Numbered from the stretch's first letter, positions 54,181-64,000 are shown. The stretch: 64,000 bases of DNA from Pseudomonadota bacterium (GCA_021325135.1 JAJPHT010000020.1:64001-128000); one strand, 5' to 3'. A program made the numbers and translations. Notes: a model not told the origin generated them from the sequence alone.

Positions 54181-55485
54181 TCACCCCTCGCGTTGCGGCA
54201 GCGCGAGCGTGAACGCGGCGCCCTTGCCGCGCCCTTCGCTCTCCACCCAGACGCGGCCGCCGTGCGCCTCGGCGAGGCCGCGGGAGATGTAGAGGCCCAG
54301 CCCGGAGCCGCGCTCCTTGACCTCGCCGCGCTCGTGGACCTGCGTGAACGGGTGGAAGAGGCGGCCCATCTCGTCCGGCGTGAGGCCGCGTCCGGTGTCG
54401 CGCACGCGCAGGCGCGCCTCGCCCTCCTCGGCGCAGCCCTCCAGCGTGACGGTGCCTCCGGAGGGCGTGAACTTCAGCGCGTTGGTGAGGAGGTTGTAGA
54501 GGACCTGCGTCACGCGCTCGGGGTCCGCCTGGACGGGCAGGCCCGCGTCGAGGCGCGCAAGGAGGGTGAGCCCGCGCGCCTCGGCGTCGGCGCGGAAGGC
54601 GTCCACCGCGGACTGGGCCAGCGCGCGCAGGTCCACGGGCTGCGGGTCGCAGCGCAGGGCGCCCGCCTCCAGGCGCGCGAGGTCCTTGATGTCGGCGACC
54701 AAGCGCTCCATCTGGGCGAGGTTGCGGCGCAGGAGGACCACGCGCTCGGGGGGCACGGCGCGGTCCGCGGGGATGAGGCTCATCTGGAGCTTCAGCGGCG
54801 TGAGCGGCGTCGCGAGGTCGTGCGCCAGGGTGTTGAGCATCTGCACGCGCAGGGCCTCCTGCTCGCGCAGGCGCGCCGCCATGCGCTCCAGCTCCTCCAG
54901 GTCGCGCTCGCGCAGGAGGGCCGAGTTCACGATGAGGCCCGAGGCGAGGAAGAGGAAGAAGGGGAGCGTGAGGGCGTTGCCCAGGCCGCCGGCCGCGGGG
55001 GCCAGGAGGACGGCCACGGCGCTCGCGCCTAGGACATTGACGCCCGCGATGAGCGCGGCGCCCCAGGAGCCCAGGAGCAGGCTCGCCATGAAGATGGGGA
55101 GGGCGAGGAAAAAGAGCGTCATGCCGCCGCCCGTGGAGGGGAGCGCGAGGAGCCACGCGCCCCAGATGGCGGCCGAGGTCACGAGGATCGCGAGGTAGGA
55201 GGCCACGACATAGCGACGGCTCAGGCTCACGGGGTAGAGGCCCACCAGGAGCGCGACCGTGCCCGTCATGATCCACAACTGGGGGCCCAGGGGAGGGGGC
55301 GCGGCGCCCGGAAGAAGGACGGTGAGCGCGGCGGCGAGCGCGCCCAGGGGGATGAGGATGGTGAGAAAAAGAGCGGTGTAACGGGAGCGTCGCCGCGCCT
55401 CGGCCCCCTCGACGCTCCGGGCCGGCTCGATGAGCCGGTCCAGGCGCGCCCGCCAGGCGGGACGTCGAGCGAGGGGCGCCGACAT
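54181..55485 (-). CDS. Membrane sensor histidine kinase
   Basis: AHDLATPLT H-box, NLLTNALKFT, DTGRG, GSGLGL; ~6 TM helices. Confidence 0.95.
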   Translation of the reverse strand: MSAPLARRPAWRARLDRLIEPARSVEGAEARRRSRYTALFLTILIPLGALAAALTVLLPGAAPPPLGPQLWIMTGTVALLVGLYPVSLSRRYVVASYLAILVTSAAIWGAWLLALPSTGGGMTLFFLALPIFMASLLLGSWGAALIAGVNVLGASAVAVLLAPAAGGLGNALTLPFFLFLASGLIVNSALLRERDLEELERMAARLREQEALRVQMLNTLAHDLATPLTPLKLQMSLIPADRAVPPERVVLLRRNLAQMERLVADIKDLARLEAGALRCDPQPVDLRALAQSAVDAFRADAEARGLTLLARLDAGLPVQADPERVTQVLYNLLTNALKFTPSGGTVTLEGCAEEGEARLRVRDTGRGLTPDEMGRLFHPFTQVHERGEVKERGSGLGLYISRGLAEAHGGRVWVESEGRGKGAAFTLALPQREG

Positions 55486-55551
55486 TCGGGCCGCTCTCTC
55501 GGCGCGGCGCTCTTCAAGGTGTCGTCGGGACCGTTTCCGGAGTCCGGAGAC

Positions 55552-55734
55552 CTACACCGTGCGGCCGGGGCCGGTGCGCCCGGTGACGAGGTGGTAGATG
55601 CCCAGGATGATGCCGACGACCACGAGGATCCAGCCGATGTACATCAGGGGGCCCGCCAGCACGCCGAAGAACGGCAGGATGCTGAGGATGAGGCCGATGA
55701 CGAGCAGGGTGATGCCAAGTCCGAGCGTTTGCAT
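55552..55734 (-). CDS. Small 2-TM membrane protein
   Basis: 60-aa hydrophobic ORF, high GC3. Confidence 0.7.
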   Translation of the reverse strand: MQTLGLGITLLVIGLILSILPFFGVLAGPLMYIGWILVVVGIILGIYHLVTGRTGPGRTV

Positions 55735-55867
55735 GCCCTTGGCTGCCCTCGCGGGGGGTTAGCTCGTTGTGGCCGGAAGCTCGGTGGAGGCCTCCTGGTG
55801 GGCGCCTGACCGAACGGGTGCGGCGCGAGCTTCACCCCGATCAGACGCCGTTCTCAGGCCTGAGACC

Positions 55868-56221
55868 ATGGTCGGCCCCTCCTCCCCCCTCCGATCCGAG
55901 CGCGTCTACGAAGCCCTCTCCGACGCCCACGCGCGCCGCGTCGTGGCCGCCTGCGTGCCGTGCGCGAAGTCCGTGAAGCAGATCAGCCAGGAGGCGGACC
56001 TGCCGCTCGCCACGGCCTACCGGCAGGTGGGCCGCCTGGTGGAGCGGGGGGTCCTCGTCGTGGAGCGGCGCGCGTTCACGCCGGAGGGGCGCATCTGCGA
56101 CCTCTTCCGCTCGCGCATCCGCTCGGCGAGGATCGAGCTGGACGCCGCGGGCGAGCGCGTCGCGTGGGAGCCCAACGAGGCGCTCGCGGGGCCGCCCGCG
56201 GGCTGGCCGGCCCTGGCGTGA
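55868..56221 (+). CDS. ArsR-like HTH protein
   Basis: EALSDAHARR...SVKQISQEADLPLATAYRQVGRL. Confidence 0.85.
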   Translation: MVGPSSPLRSERVYEALSDAHARRVVAACVPCAKSVKQISQEADLPLATAYRQVGRLVERGVLVVERRAFTPEGRICDLFRSRIRSARIELDAAGERVAWEPNEALAGPPAGWPALA

Positions 56222-56614: not shown

Positions 56615-58360
56615 TTACCGATCAAGCGTCCCCGGCGTGTAGTACGGGTTGGAGGCCGCGATGGCCTTCGTGTCCACGCCTGCGGGCGCGCCCGCGGGGA
56701 GCAGCGGCAGCGTGAGGGCGCTCTTCGCCAGGTCCAGGGTGAGCGCGGGCTCGTTGCCGTTGGCGTTGTACCACGAGGCGTCCTCGCCGAGGACCACCAG
56801 CGCGATGCGCTCGCCCTTGTGGAACACGGCCTCGGAGGGGTAGAGGTCCACGGGGACCGTCATGGCCTCGCCGGGGGCGACCGCGTCGCTCTGCGCGCGC
56901 CCGTTGCGCTGCTCCAGGCCGCGGCCGCCCTCGTCCACCCACCACCAGGCGCCCTTGTCGGTGACGTTGTAGAGCTGGACCACGACGTGCCCGTCGCCGG
57001 GCCGGTCCGCCGAGAGGCCCAGCACGAGGCGCGGCATGCCCGCGACGCGGACGTCCTGCGCCAGGGGCTCGCTCACGAACGTCGCGCTGGGCTGCGCGGG
57101 CGAGGCCGCGAGGGCGCCCTCCACCGGGAGCCCCAGGCCGTTGGTGGGCATGGCGTAGACGGTGACCGAGCCCGAGCCGGGCGCGTCCTGGAGCTTGCCC
57201 GGGGCGAGGTGGAGCGTGAGGTTCGTCGTCCCGCGAGGGGGCCAGTCCGTCTCGTTGCGCCAGCGCCCGTCGGTGTCCTGCACCTGGACGGCGGGCAGCG
57301 AGCCGGGGATGCCGTTGGCCTTGCCGTCGAGGTAGTGGTCGAACCACGCGACGATGGTGCTGTTCCAGTCGGGGCGGCTCCAGTCCTTGTTGTGGGTGTT
57401 GGACCACGGGATGTTGTGCTCCCACTGGCCCCACCACTGCATCTTCTCGCCGGGGATGAGGTCGAGGACCGCGCCGTTGTCGGGCTTCACGTTCCAGTCG
57501 GCGAGGCCGTGGACGAGGAAGACGCTGGCGTTGATCTTCGAGAACTTCGCGCTGAGGTTGCGCTCCTGCCAGAACGAGTCGTAGACGCCCTTCTCCGTGG
57601 TCGTGAGCGACTCCGCGAGGTGCGTGGCCTCCAGCGCGCAGACGTGCGTGGGGTCGACGACGGGCGCCTGCTGCTCGAGGAGGGGGTCGTAGCCGAAGCT
57701 CTCGTCCACCCAGTAGCGCGGGTAGAACGTCGGCCCCTGGAGGTAGTAGGGGGCTCCGTCCTGGTACTCGTAGCGGTAGAAGTCGGAGATGCCCTCGATG
57801 GGCACGATGGTCTTGAGGTGCTTGGGGGCTCCGATGGCGACCTCCCAGGGCGTCGTGCCGTCGTAGGAGACGCCCATGACGCCCACGTTGCCGTTGCTCC
57901 AGGGCTGCTCGCCGATCCAGTCGACGAACTCGGCCAATTCGCGCTGCTCGTCCGCTCCTCCGATCTCGAAGCACCCGCTGCTGTCCCCCGTGCCGGGCAC
58001 GTTGGCGGCGACGTAGGCGAAGCCGTGCCCCAGCAGCATGCCGACGCCGAAGAAGTCGCCCGCGAAGCCGTAGAGGTCCCCCGTCCCGATGCCGTAGGAC
58101 TCGTGGAAGTAGGGGCTGATCTGCGCGACGACGCCGAAGCGCTCGCCGGGCTGCGGGTCGTGGGGCAGGTAGACCGTGCCGCGGACGTGCGTGCCGTCCT
58201 TGGCCGCGAAGTCCAGCGCCTTGAGCGCGGGCGTCACGTTGGCCGTGGGCAGCACCGGCGCCGCGACGCTGGCGGGCGACACGGTGCCGGCGGGGGCCTG
58301 GGAGACGCAGCCCGCGAGGGCGGCCGACGCAAGGAGGGCAGCGAGGACGATGGCTCTCAG
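56615..58360 (-). CDS. CocE/NonD (peptidase S15) family hydrolase lipoprotein; probable CTG start
   Basis: GTGDSSG, WSNGNVGVMGVSYDG, VHGLADWNV, GQWEH; lipobox ALAGC upstream of the ORF-track start. Confidence 0.9.
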   Translation of the reverse strand: MRAIVLAALLASAALAGCVSQAPAGTVSPASVAAPVLPTANVTPALKALDFAAKDGTHVRGTVYLPHDPQPGERFGVVAQISPYFHESYGIGTGDLYGFAGDFFGVGMLLGHGFAYVAANVPGTGDSSGCFEIGGADEQRELAEFVDWIGEQPWSNGNVGVMGVSYDGTTPWEVAIGAPKHLKTIVPIEGISDFYRYEYQDGAPYYLQGPTFYPRYWVDESFGYDPLLEQQAPVVDPTHVCALEATHLAESLTTTEKGVYDSFWQERNLSAKFSKINASVFLVHGLADWNVKPDNGAVLDLIPGEKMQWWGQWEHNIPWSNTHNKDWSRPDWNSTIVAWFDHYLDGKANGIPGSLPAVQVQDTDGRWRNETDWPPRGTTNLTLHLAPGKLQDAPGSGSVTVYAMPTNGLGLPVEGALAASPAQPSATFVSEPLAQDVRVAGMPRLVLGLSADRPGDGHVVVQLYNVTDKGAWWWVDEGGRGLEQRNGRAQSDAVAPGEAMTVPVDLYPSEAVFHKGERIALVVLGEDASWYNANGNEPALTLDLAKSALTLPLLPAGAPAGVDTKAIAASNPYYTPGTLDR

Positions 58361-58657
58361 GGAGAAGCCTCCGAGGCGCGAGCGGCCCCCGGGGGGCTTA
58401 ACGATTTGCGCGCCAGCCTTGACCGATACGAGCCGCCGGGGGGCGATCCAGGCGGGGATTTTTCTCGTGTGGAGCCTGAGCTAGGGTTCTCCCGGGAATG
58501 CCGCTCCCCGCCGCCCGCCGCAGGGCCCCCCACGCGGGAGCGCCAGCGACCCGGATCCGCTTGGCCGGGCTCCGCAAGGCCGGCGGGAACCCGCACGCGG
58601 CGTCCCGAAAAGGGATTTAGCCTGCGGCGCGGGTCCGTGCGGCCGGGAGGCGCGCCC

Positions 58658-59083
58658 TTGCGCACGCTGGCAGTCCTCGTCGTCCTCGTCTTCCTTGGCG
58701 TCCCCGCGCTGGCGGCTGCGCCCTCCGGCTGCGTGCCCCAGTGCGAGGTGCCCAGCGCGGAGAGCGGCTACGTCCCGCCCGCGACCGTCGTGCCCTCGGG
58801 CTCCAACGTGACGTGGTCCTCGCTGGACCGCGCGCACACGGCCACCGAGCCGGGCGTCCCGGCGTCGCAGGCGTGCGTGAACGTCCTCTACGGCCCCGCG
58901 CCCGGCCACGCCCGGTTCGCCATCCACAACGGATCGCTCTGGGCGCAGCAGCCCCTTCAATTGGAGAAGCGCTGCTCCACCGCGAGCCTCCAGCGCGACG
59001 GCTCGTGGCTCCTGGAATACCACTGCCTCTACCACTCGCAGATGGTCGGCTTCCTCCTCGTCCGCCCCGAGGCCTCCCCATGA
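58658..59083 (+). CDS. Secreted type-1 (blue) copper cupredoxin
   Basis: GGAGG SD + TTG; signal peptide; VTW...HTAT...YHCLYHSQMVG (His/Cys/His/Met). Confidence 0.85.
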   Translation: MRTLAVLVVLVFLGVPALAAAPSGCVPQCEVPSAESGYVPPATVVPSGSNVTWSSLDRAHTATEPGVPASQACVNVLYGPAPGHARFAIHNGSLWAQQPLQLEKRCSTASLQRDGSWLLEYHCLYHSQMVGFLLVRPEASP

Positions 59084-60333
59084 CCCGCGCCCTCCTCGCC
59101 CTCGCCGCCGCGCTGCTCCTCCTGCCCCTGGGCCTCCACGCCTCGGCCGCCGGGCCGCGCACGCTCACCGTGTCGCCCACGGGGGATTACCACACCATCC
59201 AGGCTGCGGTGGATGCGGCGAGCCCGGGGGACACGGTGCTCGTGGCGCCGGGCGTGTACCAGGAGGCGGTGTCGGTCTCGACGCCGGACGTCACCATCCG
59301 CGGCGAGGACCGCGAGGGCGTCGTGCTCGACGGGGGCGAGGCGCTGGGCAATGCGTTCACCGTGACTGCGGACGGCGTGACGCTGGCGAGCATGACGGCG
59401 CAGCACTACGCCAGCAACGGCTTCGTGTTCACCCGCGTCGATGGCTGCCGCTTCGACGACCTGCACGCCAAGGACAACGGCGAGTACGGCCTCTACGCGG
59501 TGCACTCGCGCCACTGCGTCATGGAGAACAGCCTCGCGGAGGGGCACGGCGACTCGGGCTTCTACCTGGGCGAGACGGTGGACTGCGACTGCGACGTGCA
59601 GGACAACGTGGGCTGGAACAACATGCTGGGCTACTCGGGCACGGCCAACTCCCACATCCGCATCCACGGCAACGACTTCTTCTGGAACCGCGCGGGCATC
59701 CTGCTTTCCGTGCTGCCCGACGAGATGGGCGCGGACGTCTGCCCCGACCCCGCGGGCGGGTCCCCCGCTCCCGGCGACGCGTGCCCCGGCGTCACGCCCT
59801 ACGGCCTCCAGACGCGCACGGAGGTCTACGGCAACCACGTGCACGACAACAACAACCACACCCGCGCGACGGGCCTCTTCGCGACGGTCCACCCGCCGGT
59901 GGGCGAGGGCATCGTCATCTCCGGCGGCTGGAACGACGACGTGCACGACAACCTCGTCGAGGACAACCACCTCTGGGGCGTCGGCATCTTCTGGCTCACG
60001 ACGCCGCCCCGCGGCAACTTCGTCCACGACAACCAGATCAGCGGCGGCCGGTACGGCATCTGGTGGGACGAGCAGGGCGAGGACCACTGCTTCGCCAACA
60101 ACGCCATCACCGACGTCCGCGTCGCCAGCGACCCGGCGGTCCTCCCCTCGTGCCCGGGCCCCGCGGGCGATCTGCCCTGCCCCGCCGCGCTCTCAGATTA
60201 CGCCGCGTGCCGCGCCAACGACGCGCGGGCGCCCTCGGCGGCCAAGGACGCGGGCCTCGCATGGCGCTCGTACTGGGACCTCGACCCGTCGCAGGACGCG
60301 CCCGCGACGAAGCCCACCGGGGACGGTGCGTAG
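59080..60333 (+). CDS. Secreted right-handed parallel beta-helix protein (NosD-like)
   Basis: TIQAAVDAASPGDTVLVAPGVY, DNGEYGLY, DSGFYLG, Asn ladders; ATGA overlap. Confidence 0.85.
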   Translation: MTRALLALAAALLLLPLGLHASAAGPRTLTVSPTGDYHTIQAAVDAASPGDTVLVAPGVYQEAVSVSTPDVTIRGEDREGVVLDGGEALGNAFTVTADGVTLASMTAQHYASNGFVFTRVDGCRFDDLHAKDNGEYGLYAVHSRHCVMENSLAEGHGDSGFYLGETVDCDCDVQDNVGWNNMLGYSGTANSHIRIHGNDFFWNRAGILLSVLPDEMGADVCPDPAGGSPAPGDACPGVTPYGLQTRTEVYGNHVHDNNNHTRATGLFATVHPPVGEGIVISGGWNDDVHDNLVEDNHLWGVGIFWLTTPPRGNFVHDNQISGGRYGIWWDEQGEDHCFANNAITDVRVASDPAVLPSCPGPAGDLPCPAALSDYAACRANDARAPSAAKDAGLAWRSYWDLDPSQDAPATKPTGDGA

Positions 60334-60336
60334 GCC

Positions 60337-61176
60337 ATGCGCTCGCGGTGGGTCCTCGGCGCGCTGGCGCTCCTCCTTCTGGCCTCCTCCAGCGGGCTCT
60401 CCGCGCCGCCCGCGCCGCCGCAGGCGCGCAGCTTCACGCTGGAGGCGACCGCAGTGCCCTGCCCCGCGGGCCGCGACCCCTACGGCGACGGCATCTGCCT
60501 CGCCTACAACGGCCAGATCCCCGGCCCCACGCTTGATATCAATCTCCTGGACAACGTGACGCTGACGCTCGTCAACCACGTCCCGCAGACGGTGTGGAGC
60601 CTGCCGCCGGGGCACGACGACGTGAAGGCGCGCCTCGCGGCGTCGGGCGTCAGCTTCCACCTGCACGGCACGGCGCTCTCGGTGAAGGAGGACGGGCTCT
60701 CCTCCGCCATGGGGGCGACGTTCTTCGACTCCTACGCGCCGCCCAACGGCTCGTTCACCTACCACTTCCGCGCGGTCTACAACGGCACCTGGCAGTACCA
60801 CGACCACGTGCTGGGCCTCGACGGCATGGAGGGCGACGCGCGCGGCCTCGCGGGCACGCTGGCGATCCGCTCGGGGGGCGAGGTGCGCCCTGACGCCATC
60901 GTGGACGTGCACGCCATGGACGCGGGCCCCTTTGTCCTCCAGAACGGCACGGTCCACCCGGGCGGCAGCTTCGAGCTTCTTGAGACGGTCCTGGGCGACT
61001 GGACGTGGACGTTCACGCTCACGGACCCCGCGGGCGCCGTGGTGCGCACCCTGGATCTGGGCCCCGGGCAGGCGGAGCACGTCGTCGTCACGGGCGCCGC
61101 GGCGGGAAGCTATCGCTGGAGCGTCTCCGACGACATCCGCGGCGACGCGTACCACGGGACGGTGGTCGTCCAATGA
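60337..61176 (+). CDS. Secreted multicopper-oxidase N-domain protein (SLAC domain-1-like)
   Basis: Signal peptide; YNGQIPGPTL, SFHLHG, GTWQYHDH, GLAGTLAI. Confidence 0.85.
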   Translation: MRSRWVLGALALLLLASSSGLSAPPAPPQARSFTLEATAVPCPAGRDPYGDGICLAYNGQIPGPTLDINLLDNVTLTLVNHVPQTVWSLPPGHDDVKARLAASGVSFHLHGTALSVKEDGLSSAMGATFFDSYAPPNGSFTYHFRAVYNGTWQYHDHVLGLDGMEGDARGLAGTLAIRSGGEVRPDAIVDVHAMDAGPFVLQNGTVHPGGSFELLETVLGDWTWTFTLTDPAGAVVRTLDLGPGQAEHVVVTGAAAGSYRWSVSDDIRGDAYHGTVVVQ

Positions 61177-61961
61177 AGGCCAGCGTCGTGATCGCGGCCC
61201 TGCTCCTGGCGCCCGCTCTCGCAGCGCCCGCCGTGGGGCAGTTCCCCATGCAGGTCCCGGGCACCGACGTCTACCTCGACGGCGCGCCCGACCGCGTGTT
61301 CGACCTGGTCATGCAGGGGCACACCATCAACCTCCAGGGCTACCCGGGCGACGGACTGCCCGCGGGCGCCGGCCTCGTGCTGGAGGCGTACCTGGGGGAC
61401 CGCGTGCAGTTCACCGTCGCCGTGCCCGCCACCGCGGAGCCGCACACCTTCCACCTGCACGGGCACCCGTGGTTCGCGCCCACCGTGGGCCGCATGGTGG
61501 ACACCTGGCTCCTGCACCCCGGCGACGTGCACTCCTTCAGCGTCGTCGCGGGCGGCATCGACGGCAACGCCGGCGACTGGATGTTCCACTGCCACCTCGC
61601 CACGCACGCGGCCTCCGGCATGTGGGGCATCTTCCGCGTCTACCCGTACCGCTCGGTGATCCCGCCCATCCTGCCCGGGCCGCAGCGCGGCGGCGCCTTC
61701 GACGTGCATCTGGACCGCCTGGGCGTCCCCGTGGACGGAGCGCACCTCATGGTGCAAGTGGACGGCAAGCCGCTCCCCGCGCAGGTGACGCCCCTGGGCG
61801 GCGGCGCGTACCGCGTGGGCGCGGACCTCCCCGCGACGGGCGTCCTCGTCGTCACGGCGCACCACCCCGACCTGGGCGTCAGCGTCGCGCGCGTGGGCCT
61901 GGGCGGGACGCCCGTGCCGCCCCTCACCGCGCAGATGGACGCCATGGCGCACGCCGCGTGA
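61173..61961 (+). CDS. Secreted multicopper-oxidase C-domain protein (SLAC domain-2-like, T1 site)
   Basis: Own signal peptide; HTFHLHGHPW and WMFHCHLATHAASGM. Confidence 0.88.
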   Translation: MKASVVIAALLLAPALAAPAVGQFPMQVPGTDVYLDGAPDRVFDLVMQGHTINLQGYPGDGLPAGAGLVLEAYLGDRVQFTVAVPATAEPHTFHLHGHPWFAPTVGRMVDTWLLHPGDVHSFSVVAGGIDGNAGDWMFHCHLATHAASGMWGIFRVYPYRSVIPPILPGPQRGGAFDVHLDRLGVPVDGAHLMVQVDGKPLPAQVTPLGGGAYRVGADLPATGVLVVTAHHPDLGVSVARVGLGGTPVPPLTAQMDAMAHAA

Positions 61962-62063
61962 GGCCGAACCCGTCATCTCTCGTCCATTCGTTGTTATCAA
62001 CGGCGGGGCGAAATCGATGCGATTAAGCCCACCCCTGCCGCTGGCCGCTCCCAAGGTGGCGCG

Positions 62064-62189
62064 ATGCCGGACACCCCGCCCATCCGTAACGCCCGTTGTC
62101 GACGATGCGGGAAACCCGCCGAGCTCCCCACGGCCGTGCTGGGGGAGATGCGCTGCAGGTGCGGCCTCATGCGGGCCTACGCGATGTGA
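62064..62189 (+). CDS. Zn-ribbon microprotein (41 aa), absent from ORF track
   Basis: MPDTPPIRNARCRRCGKPAELPTAVLGEMRCRCGLMRAYAM; AAGGTG SD, attaag TATA-like sequence upstream. Confidence 0.5.
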   Translation: MPDTPPIRNARCRRCGKPAELPTAVLGEMRCRCGLMRAYAM

Positions 62190-63287
62190 TCAGCGCCGCG
62201 CCGTGAGCCAGGCCTCGGCGCGCTCGCCCGCGTAGCGCGTGGGGTCGCGGTTCACGAACTCCACCATGGGGCCGAGGCGCTCCGCCATGGCGTTGGCGGC
62301 CAGGAAGCCGACGCCGCCCGCGAGGACGGCCCACGGGATGGTGGCCCAGTCCAGGGGCACGGTGAAGACGAGGCGCGGCGCGAGGGCCCAGTAGGCGTAG
62401 GAGCCGCCCACGGCCAGCGCGAGGGTGACGAGGAGGCGCTGCGCGGAGCCTTCGGCCACGATCCAGGCGACCTCCACCGCGGCGCCGATGGCGACGACGT
62501 GCCAGGGGACCGCGCTGATGGGCCAGCCGGTGGCGGCGAGCACCGCGTTGGCGGCGAAGCGCTCCACCGCGAAGGCGGCGAGCACGCCCAGGGCGACGCC
62601 GCGGACGCCGGTCACCTGGCGCACCAGCACGGCGAAGAGGATGCCGATGGCCAGGGCGTAGGCCGGGTAGAGCACGTGGGGCAGGCCGCCGTAGTACGGG
62701 TCCTTCACCATGTCCGCGTAGCCCTGGATCTCCAAGCCCACGACGTAGAGGCTGTTGCCGTGGAAGTGGTTCCACGCGCCCACGACGGTGTACTCGTTGT
62801 AGCCCAGGGGGAAGGCCAGGGCCTCGAAGAGGAAGAGGAGGAGCAGCCCGAAGACGCCCCACCGGGCGGGGGTGAGGCGCGCCTCGCGGACGCGCGTGCC
62901 GGGGCGCCAGCCGGCCTCTGCCAGGAAGAGGAGGACGATGCCCGCCACGGTGATGGTGGTGCCGTAGAAGAGCATGAGGTGGCTGGGGCTCCACGTGGTG
63001 AGGTCCAGCCCGAAGATCTGGTGCCACGCCTGGTCGAAGGGGATGGCCGCCAGGAAGACGGCGAAGCCCGCCAGGATGACGTTGAGCGCGGGCTGCGTTG
63101 CCTCGGTGCGCGCGCGCCACGAGAGGAGCAGCGCCACGGAGATGAGGACGAAGCCCACCATGTTGACGACGTGGGGGGGCGAGATGGTCTCGCGCAGGAG
63201 GCGGAAGTGCCAGGAGACGTCCCAGGCGGAGCTGACCAGCTTCAGGGCGAGCCCGGCGATCCAGAGCGTCCAGACGGTGCGGCGCAT
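62190..63287 (-). CDS. Polytopic membrane protein with two PmoC/AmoC-like D-x-x-W-H...P-x-H motifs
   Basis: WDVSWHFRLLRETISPPH and FDQAWHQIFGLDLTTWSPSHLMLFY; ~10 TM helices; GGAGG SD (alternative start 63323). Confidence 0.8.
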   Translation of the reverse strand: MRRTVWTLWIAGLALKLVSSAWDVSWHFRLLRETISPPHVVNMVGFVLISVALLLSWRARTEATQPALNVILAGFAVFLAAIPFDQAWHQIFGLDLTTWSPSHLMLFYGTTITVAGIVLLFLAEAGWRPGTRVREARLTPARWGVFGLLLLFLFEALAFPLGYNEYTVVGAWNHFHGNSLYVVGLEIQGYADMVKDPYYGGLPHVLYPAYALAIGILFAVLVRQVTGVRGVALGVLAAFAVERFAANAVLAATGWPISAVPWHVVAIGAAVEVAWIVAEGSAQRLLVTLALAVGGSYAYWALAPRLVFTVPLDWATIPWAVLAGGVGFLAANAMAERLGPMVEFVNRDPTRYAGERAEAWLTARR

Positions 63288-63431
63288 CGAGGCCCTCCGG
63301 CGGCGTTCGAGGGCCGCGGCCATACTTAACCTCGCCCCCGCCGACGTCCCGGCAAGAAGGGGAAAAGCTCAAACGCGCCGCCGCGGGCCGCAAAGGAGAT
63401 AGCGCGCCCCCGGGCTCGCCCGTTGCCACCC

Positions 63432-64000
63432 ATGCCCCCGCTGCTCGTCGTGCTGGCCCTCTTCCTGGTCGCCGTGATCGGGGGCGCGCAGAACGCCGTG
63501 GCGGGCGGAGGGAGCTTCTTCACGTTTCCCACGCTCCTCTTCGCGGGCGTCGGCTCCATCTCCGCCAACGCCACCAGCACCGTGGCGCTCTGGCCCGGCA
63601 GCGTCGCCAGCGCGGTGGCCTTCCGCGGCGAGCTGCGCCACGAGCGGCGCCTCTTCCTTGTCCTGGGCGCGGCCAGCCTCGCGGGCGGCCTCGCGGGCGC
63701 CCTGCTCCTGCTCCACACGCCGCAGCGCGCCTTCGACGCCCTGATCCCGTGGCTGCTCCTGGCGGCGACGCTCGTCTTCGCCTTCGGGCCCCTGGTCACG
63801 CGGCGCCTCCGCGGCCACGCGCGCCCCTCGAGGTCCCTGTGGCCCTTCGCCCTCGTGCAGCTCGTCGTCGCGGTGTACGGCGGCTACTTCGGCGGCGGCA
63901 TCGGGATCATGATGCTCGCGGCGTTCAGCGCCATGGGCATGGAGGACCTCCACGCCATGAACGGCCTCAAGGCCGTGCTGGGCGCGCTGATCAACGGCGT
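63432..64000 (+). CDS. TauE/SafE family exporter, truncated at window end
   Basis: NAVAGGGSFFTFPTL, ANATSTVALWPGS, YGGYFGGGIGIMML, MNGLK. Confidence 0.9.
   Translation, partial: MPPLLVVLALFLVAVIGGAQNAVAGGGSFFTFPTLLFAGVGSISANATSTVALWPGSVASAVAFRGELRHERRLFLVLGAASLAGGLAGALLLLHTPQRAFDALIPWLLLAATLVFAFGPLVTRRLRGHARPSRSLWPFALVQLVVAVYGGYFGGGIGIMMLAAFSAMGMEDLHAMNGLKAVLGALING

Follow-up and report, generated by a model that had tools for sequence, protein, structure and literature searches.

A conserved archaeal gene cassette for a putative split two-domain multicopper oxidase, next to a membrane protein with a PmoC-like metal module

In two-domain multicopper oxidases (MCOs), such as the Streptomyces laccase SLAC, the trinuclear copper centre lies where domain 1 of one chain meets domain 2 of another. 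Pseudoazurin and azurin serve as electron donors to NirK, and an evolutionary step in which the single-domain parts of an MCO are made separately is said to have been proposed by Nakamura and Go in 2005. Elsewhere in copper biology, NosD takes Cu(I) from NosL and delivers it to N2O reductase, which contains a cupredoxin domain (PMC13685413), and PmoC, subunit C of the copper membrane monooxygenases (CuMMOs), carries the sites CuC (D156, H160, and H173, in a site where R165 is held by a hydrogen bond) and CuD (N227, H231, and H245) (PMC12576850). Here, we describe a locus that resembles each of these systems in part. It consists of five genes, g1 to g5, in a 64,000-nucleotide stretch of DNA (GCA_021325135.1 JAJPHT010000020.1:64001-128000; "the window" below means this whole stretch) with a G+C content of 72%, which comes from a soil archaeon of the Thermoplasmatota (G000; genome of 3.77 Mb, 94% complete). 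Diamond et al. 2022 describe related soil Thermoplasmatota, Ca. Angelarchaeales (PMC9038741).

We consider it fairly likely that g1 to g4 make up one unit for a split MCO of the SLAC type and that g5, which converges on them, is an independent membrane metalloprotein.

The two putative halves of the oxidase

The first four genes run in one direction and lie end to end, as follows (coordinates are those of the window).

58658..59083, plus strand: g1, predicted secreted small type-1 (T1) cupredoxin, 141 amino acids, TTG start; assigned by ligand pattern and predicted fold
59080..60333, plus strand: g2, predicted secreted right-handed parallel beta-helix protein, 417 amino acids, with a Cys-rich C-terminal part; assigned by Pfam
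60337..61176, plus strand: g3, predicted secreted MCO half A, 279 amino acids; assigned by Pfam Cu-oxidase_3 and invariant ligands
61173..61961, plus strand: g4, predicted secreted MCO half B, 262 amino acids; assigned by Pfam Cu-oxidase_2 and invariant ligands

Each of the oxidase genes encodes one cupredoxin domain with its own share of the copper ligands. The g3 domain (Pfam Cu-oxidase_3, 1.7e-12) contains two HxH motifs of a trinuclear centre, H108/H110 and H155/H157, which are invariant in 10/10 sequences (alignment A3), and no T1 ligands were found in this orthologue alignment (n=10). The g4 domain (Pfam Cu-oxidase_2, 8.2e-12) contains HxxHxH (H91, H94, and H96) and HCHxxxHxxxxM (H139, C140, H141, H145, and M150), all invariant across ten orthologues (alignment A4); these motifs correspond to a T1 site and the other half of the trinuclear centre. 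Between them, the two proteins have precisely the four motifs that are canonical for MCOs, shared out in the manner of type-B two-domain enzymes, and this in orthologue pairs (n=10) that share 31-62% identity. Type B enzymes have both cupredoxin domains on one polypeptide, whereas here they are encoded by two genes. Profile searches against the PDB matched g3 to domain 1 of Streptomyces-type two-domain laccases (~1e-21) and g4 to the manganese oxidase MnxG (1e-35) and to domain 2 of two-domain laccases (1e-33 to 1e-23).

In every genome and contig examined, g3 and g4 are separate, adjacent, and usually overlapping genes, each with its own signal peptide, so the split is not an assembly artefact. 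A GTDB-wide scan recovered the split form in Thermoplasmatota metagenome-assembled genomes only, and the next relatives were fused two-domain MCOs of Solirubrobacterales. The closest fused proteins are only 34-38% identical, and a search of longer proteins gave no fused relative of g3, though this counts as weak evidence. Because the trinuclear centre of two-domain MCOs is shared between domains of different chains, g3 and g4 would have to associate to give a working enzyme. A complex prediction for g3 and g4 with g1 as partner returned scores of 0.01 and 0.12 against a mark of 0.32 and counts neither way.

Both halves continue past the cupredoxin domain into a further beta-sandwich domain at the C-terminus, about 90-100 residues long (97 amino acids in g3). 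The one in g3 has weak Ig-like or cupredoxin-like similarity (FlgD_ig, Cupredoxin_1), and the Ig-like one in g4 weakly matches Big_1, CarboxypepD_reg, and YtkA. The idea that the g3 domain is a degenerate MCO domain 2 was examined by comparison with g4, which gave an hhalign probability of 13% (E 0.002).

Translation puts an ATGA overlap at both the g1/g2 and the g3/g4 junctions and leaves 3 nucleotides between g2 and g3, and the products of g1, g2, g3, and g4 (4/4) have hydrophobic, signal-peptide-like N-termini. An earlier note on the window had described four tightly coupled secreted genes, among them those for a T1 cupredoxin and two half-MCOs. The translations bear out the coupling and the export signals, the ligand pattern and predicted fold agree with the cupredoxin, and the complementary invariant copper ligands of g3 and g4 agree with the half-MCOs; the gene ends also held in their layout, but g4 ends at 61961 and not later. 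An in-frame GTG at 58637 is an alternative start for g1. No conserved twin-arginine motif was found in the g1-g4 N-termini, and export looks Sec-type rather than Tat, as judged from those N-termini.

The cassette and its small proteins

The host class is represented in the searched collection by 21 species-level genomes, G000 counted among them, and ten of these 21 (G000 included) hold g3/g4 orthologues. In at least eight species of this one class of soil Thermoplasmatota (G000, G011, G013, and G015-G019), g1 and g2 are located together with g3-g4, in three gene orders.

g1-g2-g3-g4: G000, G011 (across two contigs), G013, G018, and G019
g1-g3-g4-g2: G016 and G017
g1-g3-g4, with g2 convergent: G015
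g3-g4 only: G009, a congener, 99% complete

The preservation of linkage through three gene orders points to selection on linkage and argues that the four genes work together, and since g1-g4 recur together in other genomes, the arrangement at the present locus is more than chance. The four-gene cassette is also repeated on two metagenome contigs. In sum, this archaeal module is conserved, though within narrow taxonomic limits. In G018, a genome of family f6, the g3-g4 pair is present in three separate copies, on contigs C69, C177, and C130.

The nearest bacterial relative is a fused 342-amino-acid two-domain MCO of Solirubrobacterales bacterium 67-14, with one plastocyanin-like gene upstream and two downstream (L036:4044-7326). 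A partnership of cupredoxin and MCO thus recurs, which supports an electron-transfer partnership. The same bacterial locus also adjoins a gene for a 1047-amino-acid protein without a Pfam match.

By predicted fold and ligand pattern, g1 is a cupredoxin, with the ligands H60, C123, H126, and M130. The first three are invariant in the g1 family, and the axial residue is either Met or Gln (alignment A2), which matches genuine blue copper proteins; further invariants are C25-x-P-x-C29 and the Cys pair C73/C106. When the AlphaFold2 model (predicted local distance difference test [pLDDT] of 83.6, core >90) was searched with Foldseek, the top 50 matches were essentially all cupredoxins (prob 0.94-1.0), the best being to a CuA domain, Cupredoxin_1, AcoP, amicyanin, and plastocyanin (prob 1.0, E 8e-5 to 5e-3). 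The g1 profile gave weak PDB matches to amicyanin and a blue copper domain, and no Pfam or NCBIfam model, Copper-bind and Cupredoxin_1 included, matched g1 at E<=0.1. A reading of the first Cys of g1 as part of a lipobox was rejected, as the CxPxC of family f6 lies 20-25 residues past the signal peptide.

A paralogue of g1, 32% identical and with CxxPC and the T1 ligands kept, is found elsewhere in the same genome (G000:C15:15906-16331; L039:5407-5832, minus strand). It lies directly downstream of a gene for a secreted 612-654-amino-acid GG-x-D-x-Y repeat protein without a Pfam family (L039:5850-7688), and the pairing occurs in three genomes of the genus (also L040:4842-7244 and L041:5007-7322). 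It makes a second pair of a small cupredoxin and a repeat or solenoid protein, parallel to g1-g2.

The g2 protein matches Pfam Beta_helix (2.5e-12) and NosD (8.5e-11) about equally, and it reaches 89.8 bits with NCBIfam TIGR03805, below the cut-off. In the PDB, its profile found pectinesterase N-termini only, and NosD chains were not among the matches. Invariant residues include H156, D158, C169, and C171 (alignment A5). No NosF, NosY, NosL, or NosZ gene is present in the window, and nos_propeller (NosZ) had no match in the genome, in a search that had no positive control. The label "NosD-like," given to g2 at first, should therefore better be read as "beta-helix": that part of the label stands, and the NosD part falls on both score and the lack of a NosF/NosY/NosZ context. 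A copper-loading role is nevertheless suggested by analogy; it would be plausible because NosD passes Cu(I) (PMC13685413), and Sec-type export would need metallation outside the cell.

Upstream, the cassette is bordered by the following features.

58283..58657, no strand: intergenic region, presumed g1-g4 promoter, between the divergent S15-family peptidase gene and g1; sequence read
56615-58282, minus strand: S15-family peptidase gene, divergent from g1

Further neighbours, beside the S15 peptidase gene, are those for a histidine kinase, a helix-turn-helix (HTH) protein, and leucyl-tRNA synthetase, and there are no other copper genes close by. The histidine kinase gene (HisKA and HATPase_c, minus strand) and the gene for the small HTH protein (plus strand) occupy positions 54181-56221, 2.4-4.5 kb upstream of g1.

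The membrane protein and its N-terminal module

Downstream of the cassette lie a membrane protein gene and an exporter gene.

62190..63287, minus strand: g5, polytopic membrane protein, 365 amino acids from Met13, open reading frame to 63323; defined by family alignments and profile search
about 62898-63287, minus strand: N-terminal four-helix module of g5; defined by AmoC/PmoC profile matches
63423..64000, plus strand: TauE/SafE-family anion exporter gene, 5' part, which runs off the window; Pfam TauE 3.5e-26

The coordinates agree with the membrane protein gene being convergent with g4, across a spacer of 229 bp, and with TauE being divergent from it. The true start of g5 is most likely Met13 (63287), as judged from homologues, and residues are numbered from there. 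The protein has about ten helices, with the metal-site module at its N-terminus.

Full-length g5 has no Pfam or NCBIfam match. Its close family comprises about 20 sequences, and the family profile reaches 1443 representative clusters at E<=1e-3; this wider family includes bacterial proteins of 300-626 amino acids with a common N-terminal four-helix module. It has no Pfam family, and the distant relatives with names are all "hypothetical protein." Some distant relatives have additional extracytoplasmic domains: P0155 (545 amino acids, metagenome) has an N-terminal YtkA-like domain (E 2.5e-4) before the PmoC-like module, and P0144 and P0147 have long C-terminal extensions that end in a further hydrophobic segment. 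In a congener, the g5 homologue is broken into three short stretches that lie in different frames, and there is an in-frame TAG (G012:C101:841-1399); this may be a pseudogene or an assembly error.

Within the module, g5 carries D23/H27/R32/H39 and D85/H89/D95/H103. Across 26 diverse members, W22, D23, H27, H39, D85, H89, G93, D95, W99, and H103 are invariant (alignment A8), and the two D-x3-H...H motifs are invariant across the family (alignments A1 and A8). A profile of the A8 module, searched against all PDB sequences, gave 15 matches at E<=10, of which 14/15 were AmoC/PmoC chains, with best AmoC/PmoC E-values of 5.7e-5, 2.2e-4, 2.6e-4, and 4.4e-3; the control, a profile of the C-terminal half of g5, gave one irrelevant match (E 0.11). 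In these alignments, the family motif WD-x2-WH-x4-RDT-x2-SPPH falls on D-G-x-W-H-x4-R-D-T-x-F-T-P-S-H of PmoC, and D-x3-H-x13-H falls on N-E-W-G-H-x13-H. Residues D23, H27, R32, and H39, invariant or nearly so in the 26 members, correspond to D156, H160, R165, and H173 of CuC, and D85, H89, and H103 correspond to N227, H231, and H245 of CuD with identical spacing and Asp in place of Asn. All six CuC/CuD ligand positions and Arg165 are thereby aligned. The wider family has the PmoC spacing in both motifs, and the subfamily of g5 has a one-residue deletion in the first (H39 lies 16, not 17, residues after D23). In the reverse test, Pfam AmoC was the commonest sub-threshold match of the isolated modules (7/26), and the isolated g5 module reached 0.0045 with Pfam AmoC (PF04896), at 16.8 bits versus a gathering threshold of 26.7.

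These profile comparisons suggest that the N-terminal module of g5 is very probably a true homologue of the metal core of CuMMO subunit C. The description of g5 as PmoC-like on account of two CuMMO-C-type motifs is thereby strengthened, as the remote homology is seen by profile and not by motif alone. In the AlphaFold2 model (pLDDT 87.6), helices 1-4 carry the ligand residues at their ends, all on the same side of the membrane. This would be the outer face, given an Arg-rich N-terminus inside, and the four-helix bundle probably binds copper there. Searches with the whole model returned little: Foldseek found nothing in the PDB at E<0.07, and a wide VIA-align search gave Z 9.4 to ECF S-components (residues 138-355), Z 7.3 to cytochrome b561 (residues 1-165), and Z 7.7 with a root-mean-square deviation of 5.8 to chain B of 3chx, which we take to be PmoA. 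All of the VIA-align matches are within helical-bundle noise, and a second VIA look gave a best Z of 5.7.

We did not file g5 as a member of the AmoC/PmoC family: its score is below threshold, its architecture differs, and A or B subunits were not found. AmoA/PmoA and PmoB (PF02461 and PF04744) had no match in the 94%-complete genome, where divergent archaeal forms may escape Pfam (PMC9038741). Pfam AmoC gave one sub-threshold match across 401 Thermoplasmatota genomes, so Pfam cannot judge divergent archaeal CuMMOs.

Readings of the locus and likeness to known systems

In the mechanism that we favour, g1-g4 would be a single transcription and functional unit for a secreted copper oxidase. The proteins g3 and g4 would be the halves of a SLAC-type (type B) two-domain MCO, exported as separate polypeptides, with g3 giving four histidines of the trinuclear centre and g4 giving the other four along with the type-1 copper at which electrons from the substrate enter. 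Only the g3:g4 heteromer would be active, and its make-up would probably be A3B3 if it follows the trimeric two-domain MCOs. It would take single electrons from an extracellular donor, which may be a metal ion, a phenolic compound, or reduced g1, and would reduce O2 to water. The most likely role of g1 would be to pass electrons to, or take them from, the T1 site of g4, much as pseudoazurin does for NirK. As for g2, it may be an accessory protein that helps to assemble the halves, or to load them with copper, after their export in an unfolded state, or else one that serves as a scaffold or binds the substrate.

Several observations weigh against this reading. The assembly of g3 with g4 and the contacts of g1 and g2 are predictions from sequence. 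The g2 protein is below every NosD threshold (58.3 bits with the NosD family TIGR04247, cut-off 300), and its copper site would be putative at most. Nor are g1 and g2 obligatory, since G009, which is 99% complete, has g3-g4 with no g2 homologue and no adjacent g1; one metagenome contig (n=1) likewise has a g1-sized gene and g3-g4 with no g2. In the case of g5, the proposed homology to PmoC is read from the profile of the N-terminal module. The full-length family profile had no match among PDB sequences at E<=10, full-length g5 is below the Pfam gathering threshold for AmoC, and three fold searches with the whole 365-amino-acid model, of which the module is only 110 residues, listed no PmoC chain.

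It is possible, if rather unlikely, that the module serves the homeostasis of copper or another metal and not energy metabolism or catabolism. In that case, the split MCO would detoxify or mineralise metal ions outside the cell as a cuprous, ferrous, or manganous oxidase, in the way of CueO, CopA, or MnxG, with g1 and g2 as copper-binding helpers. MnxG is the best PDB profile match of g4 and also its NCBIfam match (1.8e-12), there are weak matches to CopA-type MCOs, the host lives in soil, and MCOs of such size often act on metal ions. Yet no genes for a copper-efflux ATPase, CopC/CopD, CsoR, or a metallochaperone are found nearby, the ligands of g1 are those of a redox-type T1 site and not of a CopC-type site, and g3 and g4 show no evident Met-rich segment.

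The earlier note had joined g1-g4 and the PmoC-like protein in one system, in effect a single copper oxidation or electron-transfer machine; in one version of the idea, this would be a minimal membrane monooxygenase that receives electrons or copper from the secreted proteins. We now regard such a joint system as very unlikely. In its favour are the convergence of g4 and g5 at a distance of 229 bp, the retention of g5 within 2.6 kb of g3-g4 in the congener G009, the standing of g5 as a probable PmoC relative with all metal-ligand positions kept, and the general fact that PmoC works with a cupredoxin-domain subunit in particulate methane monooxygenase. However, the gene-neighbourhood check, chosen beforehand as the one able to refute the idea, found no linkage beyond one genus. 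Full-length g5 orthologues occur in two genomes of the class only (G000 and G009), and it is only in these two species of one genus that g5 is close to MCO genes. The broad module profile detects a g5-family member in 7/21 class genomes. Three of them also have the cassette (G000, G009, and G018, on different contigs in the last), and four have the module without the cassette (G006, G010, G012, and G014), whereas six cassette genomes have no detectable module (G011, G013, which is 100% complete, G015, G016, G017, and G019). Seven other contexts of the g5 family (PGK, aldolase, ABC transporter, SRAP, methyltransferase, glycosyltransferase, and SbcCD) contain no MCO genes, and the genome under study has, as noted, no AmoA/PmoA or PmoB family match. 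Even in the congener, three unrelated co-directional genes (250, 226, and 303 amino acids, no Pfam match recorded) stand between the g5 orthologue and g3-g4 (G009:C25; L001/L027), where the window has the 229-bp spacer. The distribution thus comes close to refuting a joint system; g5 is not part of the oxidase module, and its adjacency is genus-level synteny. The congener (L001/L002) likewise retains the divergent TauE-g5 pair, which is not seen further afield.

We give little credence to the view that g3 and g4 are independent single-domain cupredoxin proteins, "medium-length 1-domain blue copper proteins" of the sort catalogued in related archaea, with separate roles and no joint trinuclear centre. 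Soil Thermoplasmatota related to the host do have many diverse blue copper proteins of one or two domains to which no role has been assigned (PMC9038741), and the assembly of g3 with g4 is itself a prediction, but g3 has two HxH pairs and no T1 site, and such pairs have no known function outside a trinuclear centre. In addition, g4 retains HxH, HCH, and the T1 set, all invariant, and the two genes are always adjacent and usually overlapping. There is just as slim a chance that the g5 family is a widespread stand-alone form of the CuMMO copper module, a membrane copper enzyme made of one polypeptide and possibly resembling the ancestor of subunit C, and that in this genus it exchanges electrons or copper with the adjacent secreted cupredoxin and split-MCO proteins as a minimal membrane copper oxygenase without A and B subunits.

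The favoured reading, a split SLAC-type oxidase beside an independent g5, can be set against known systems. The claim that the copper operon matches no named pathway has held, in that the searchable literature, in which subscription journals are outside coverage, yielded no described operon of this kind: neither a natural split or two-subunit MCO like this one, nor a system pairing NosD with an MCO, nor a remote family resembling PmoC. The nearest counterpart of g3/g4 is SLAC (Streptomyces; PDB 3cg8, 4m3h, and 3tas), which likewise has HxH and HxH in domain 1 and HxxHxH and HCHxxxHxxxxM in domain 2 and which provides the best profile matches for g3 and the best or near-best for g4. It differs in that g3 and g4 are separate genes with their own signal peptides and extra C-terminal beta-sandwich domains, an arrangement conserved in 10 genomes. 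If the reading is true, g3:g4 would be a natural example of the evolutionary step proposed for MCOs, with an oxygen-reducing centre assembled outside the cell from two exported proteins, and would provide a simple system for studying how a trinuclear copper centre is assembled and loaded, as well as two-component laccases for engineering.

The small partners have parallels of their own. As with NirK and pseudoazurin or azurin, and with the Solirubrobacterales MCO and its plastocyanin-like genes, a small T1 cupredoxin is encoded beside a two-domain cupredoxin enzyme; in contrast to those partners, g1 is divergent (no Pfam Copper-bind match) and has the invariant CxPxC, and its electron transfer with g4 is putative. 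NosD, of the NosDFY system, is like g2 a periplasmic or extracellular right-handed beta-helix, but g2 scores 58 against 300 bits, has no nos gene context, and does not accompany the MCO pair in every genome.

Finally, the module of g5 probably shares with CuMMO subunit C (PF04896) a common metal-site core in which the CuC and CuD positions align, while g5 differs in being below the Pfam cut-off, in its length of 365 amino acids, in having Asp for Asn at CuD, and in standing alone in varied archaeal and bacterial contexts. Archaea and bacteria would accordingly have a large family, still without a name, in which the CuC/CuD core of CuMMO subunit C stands alone and retains each of its ligand positions. 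Such a family could allow this much-debated active site to be modelled in a single polypeptide and could give a lead on the origin of the CuMMOs.

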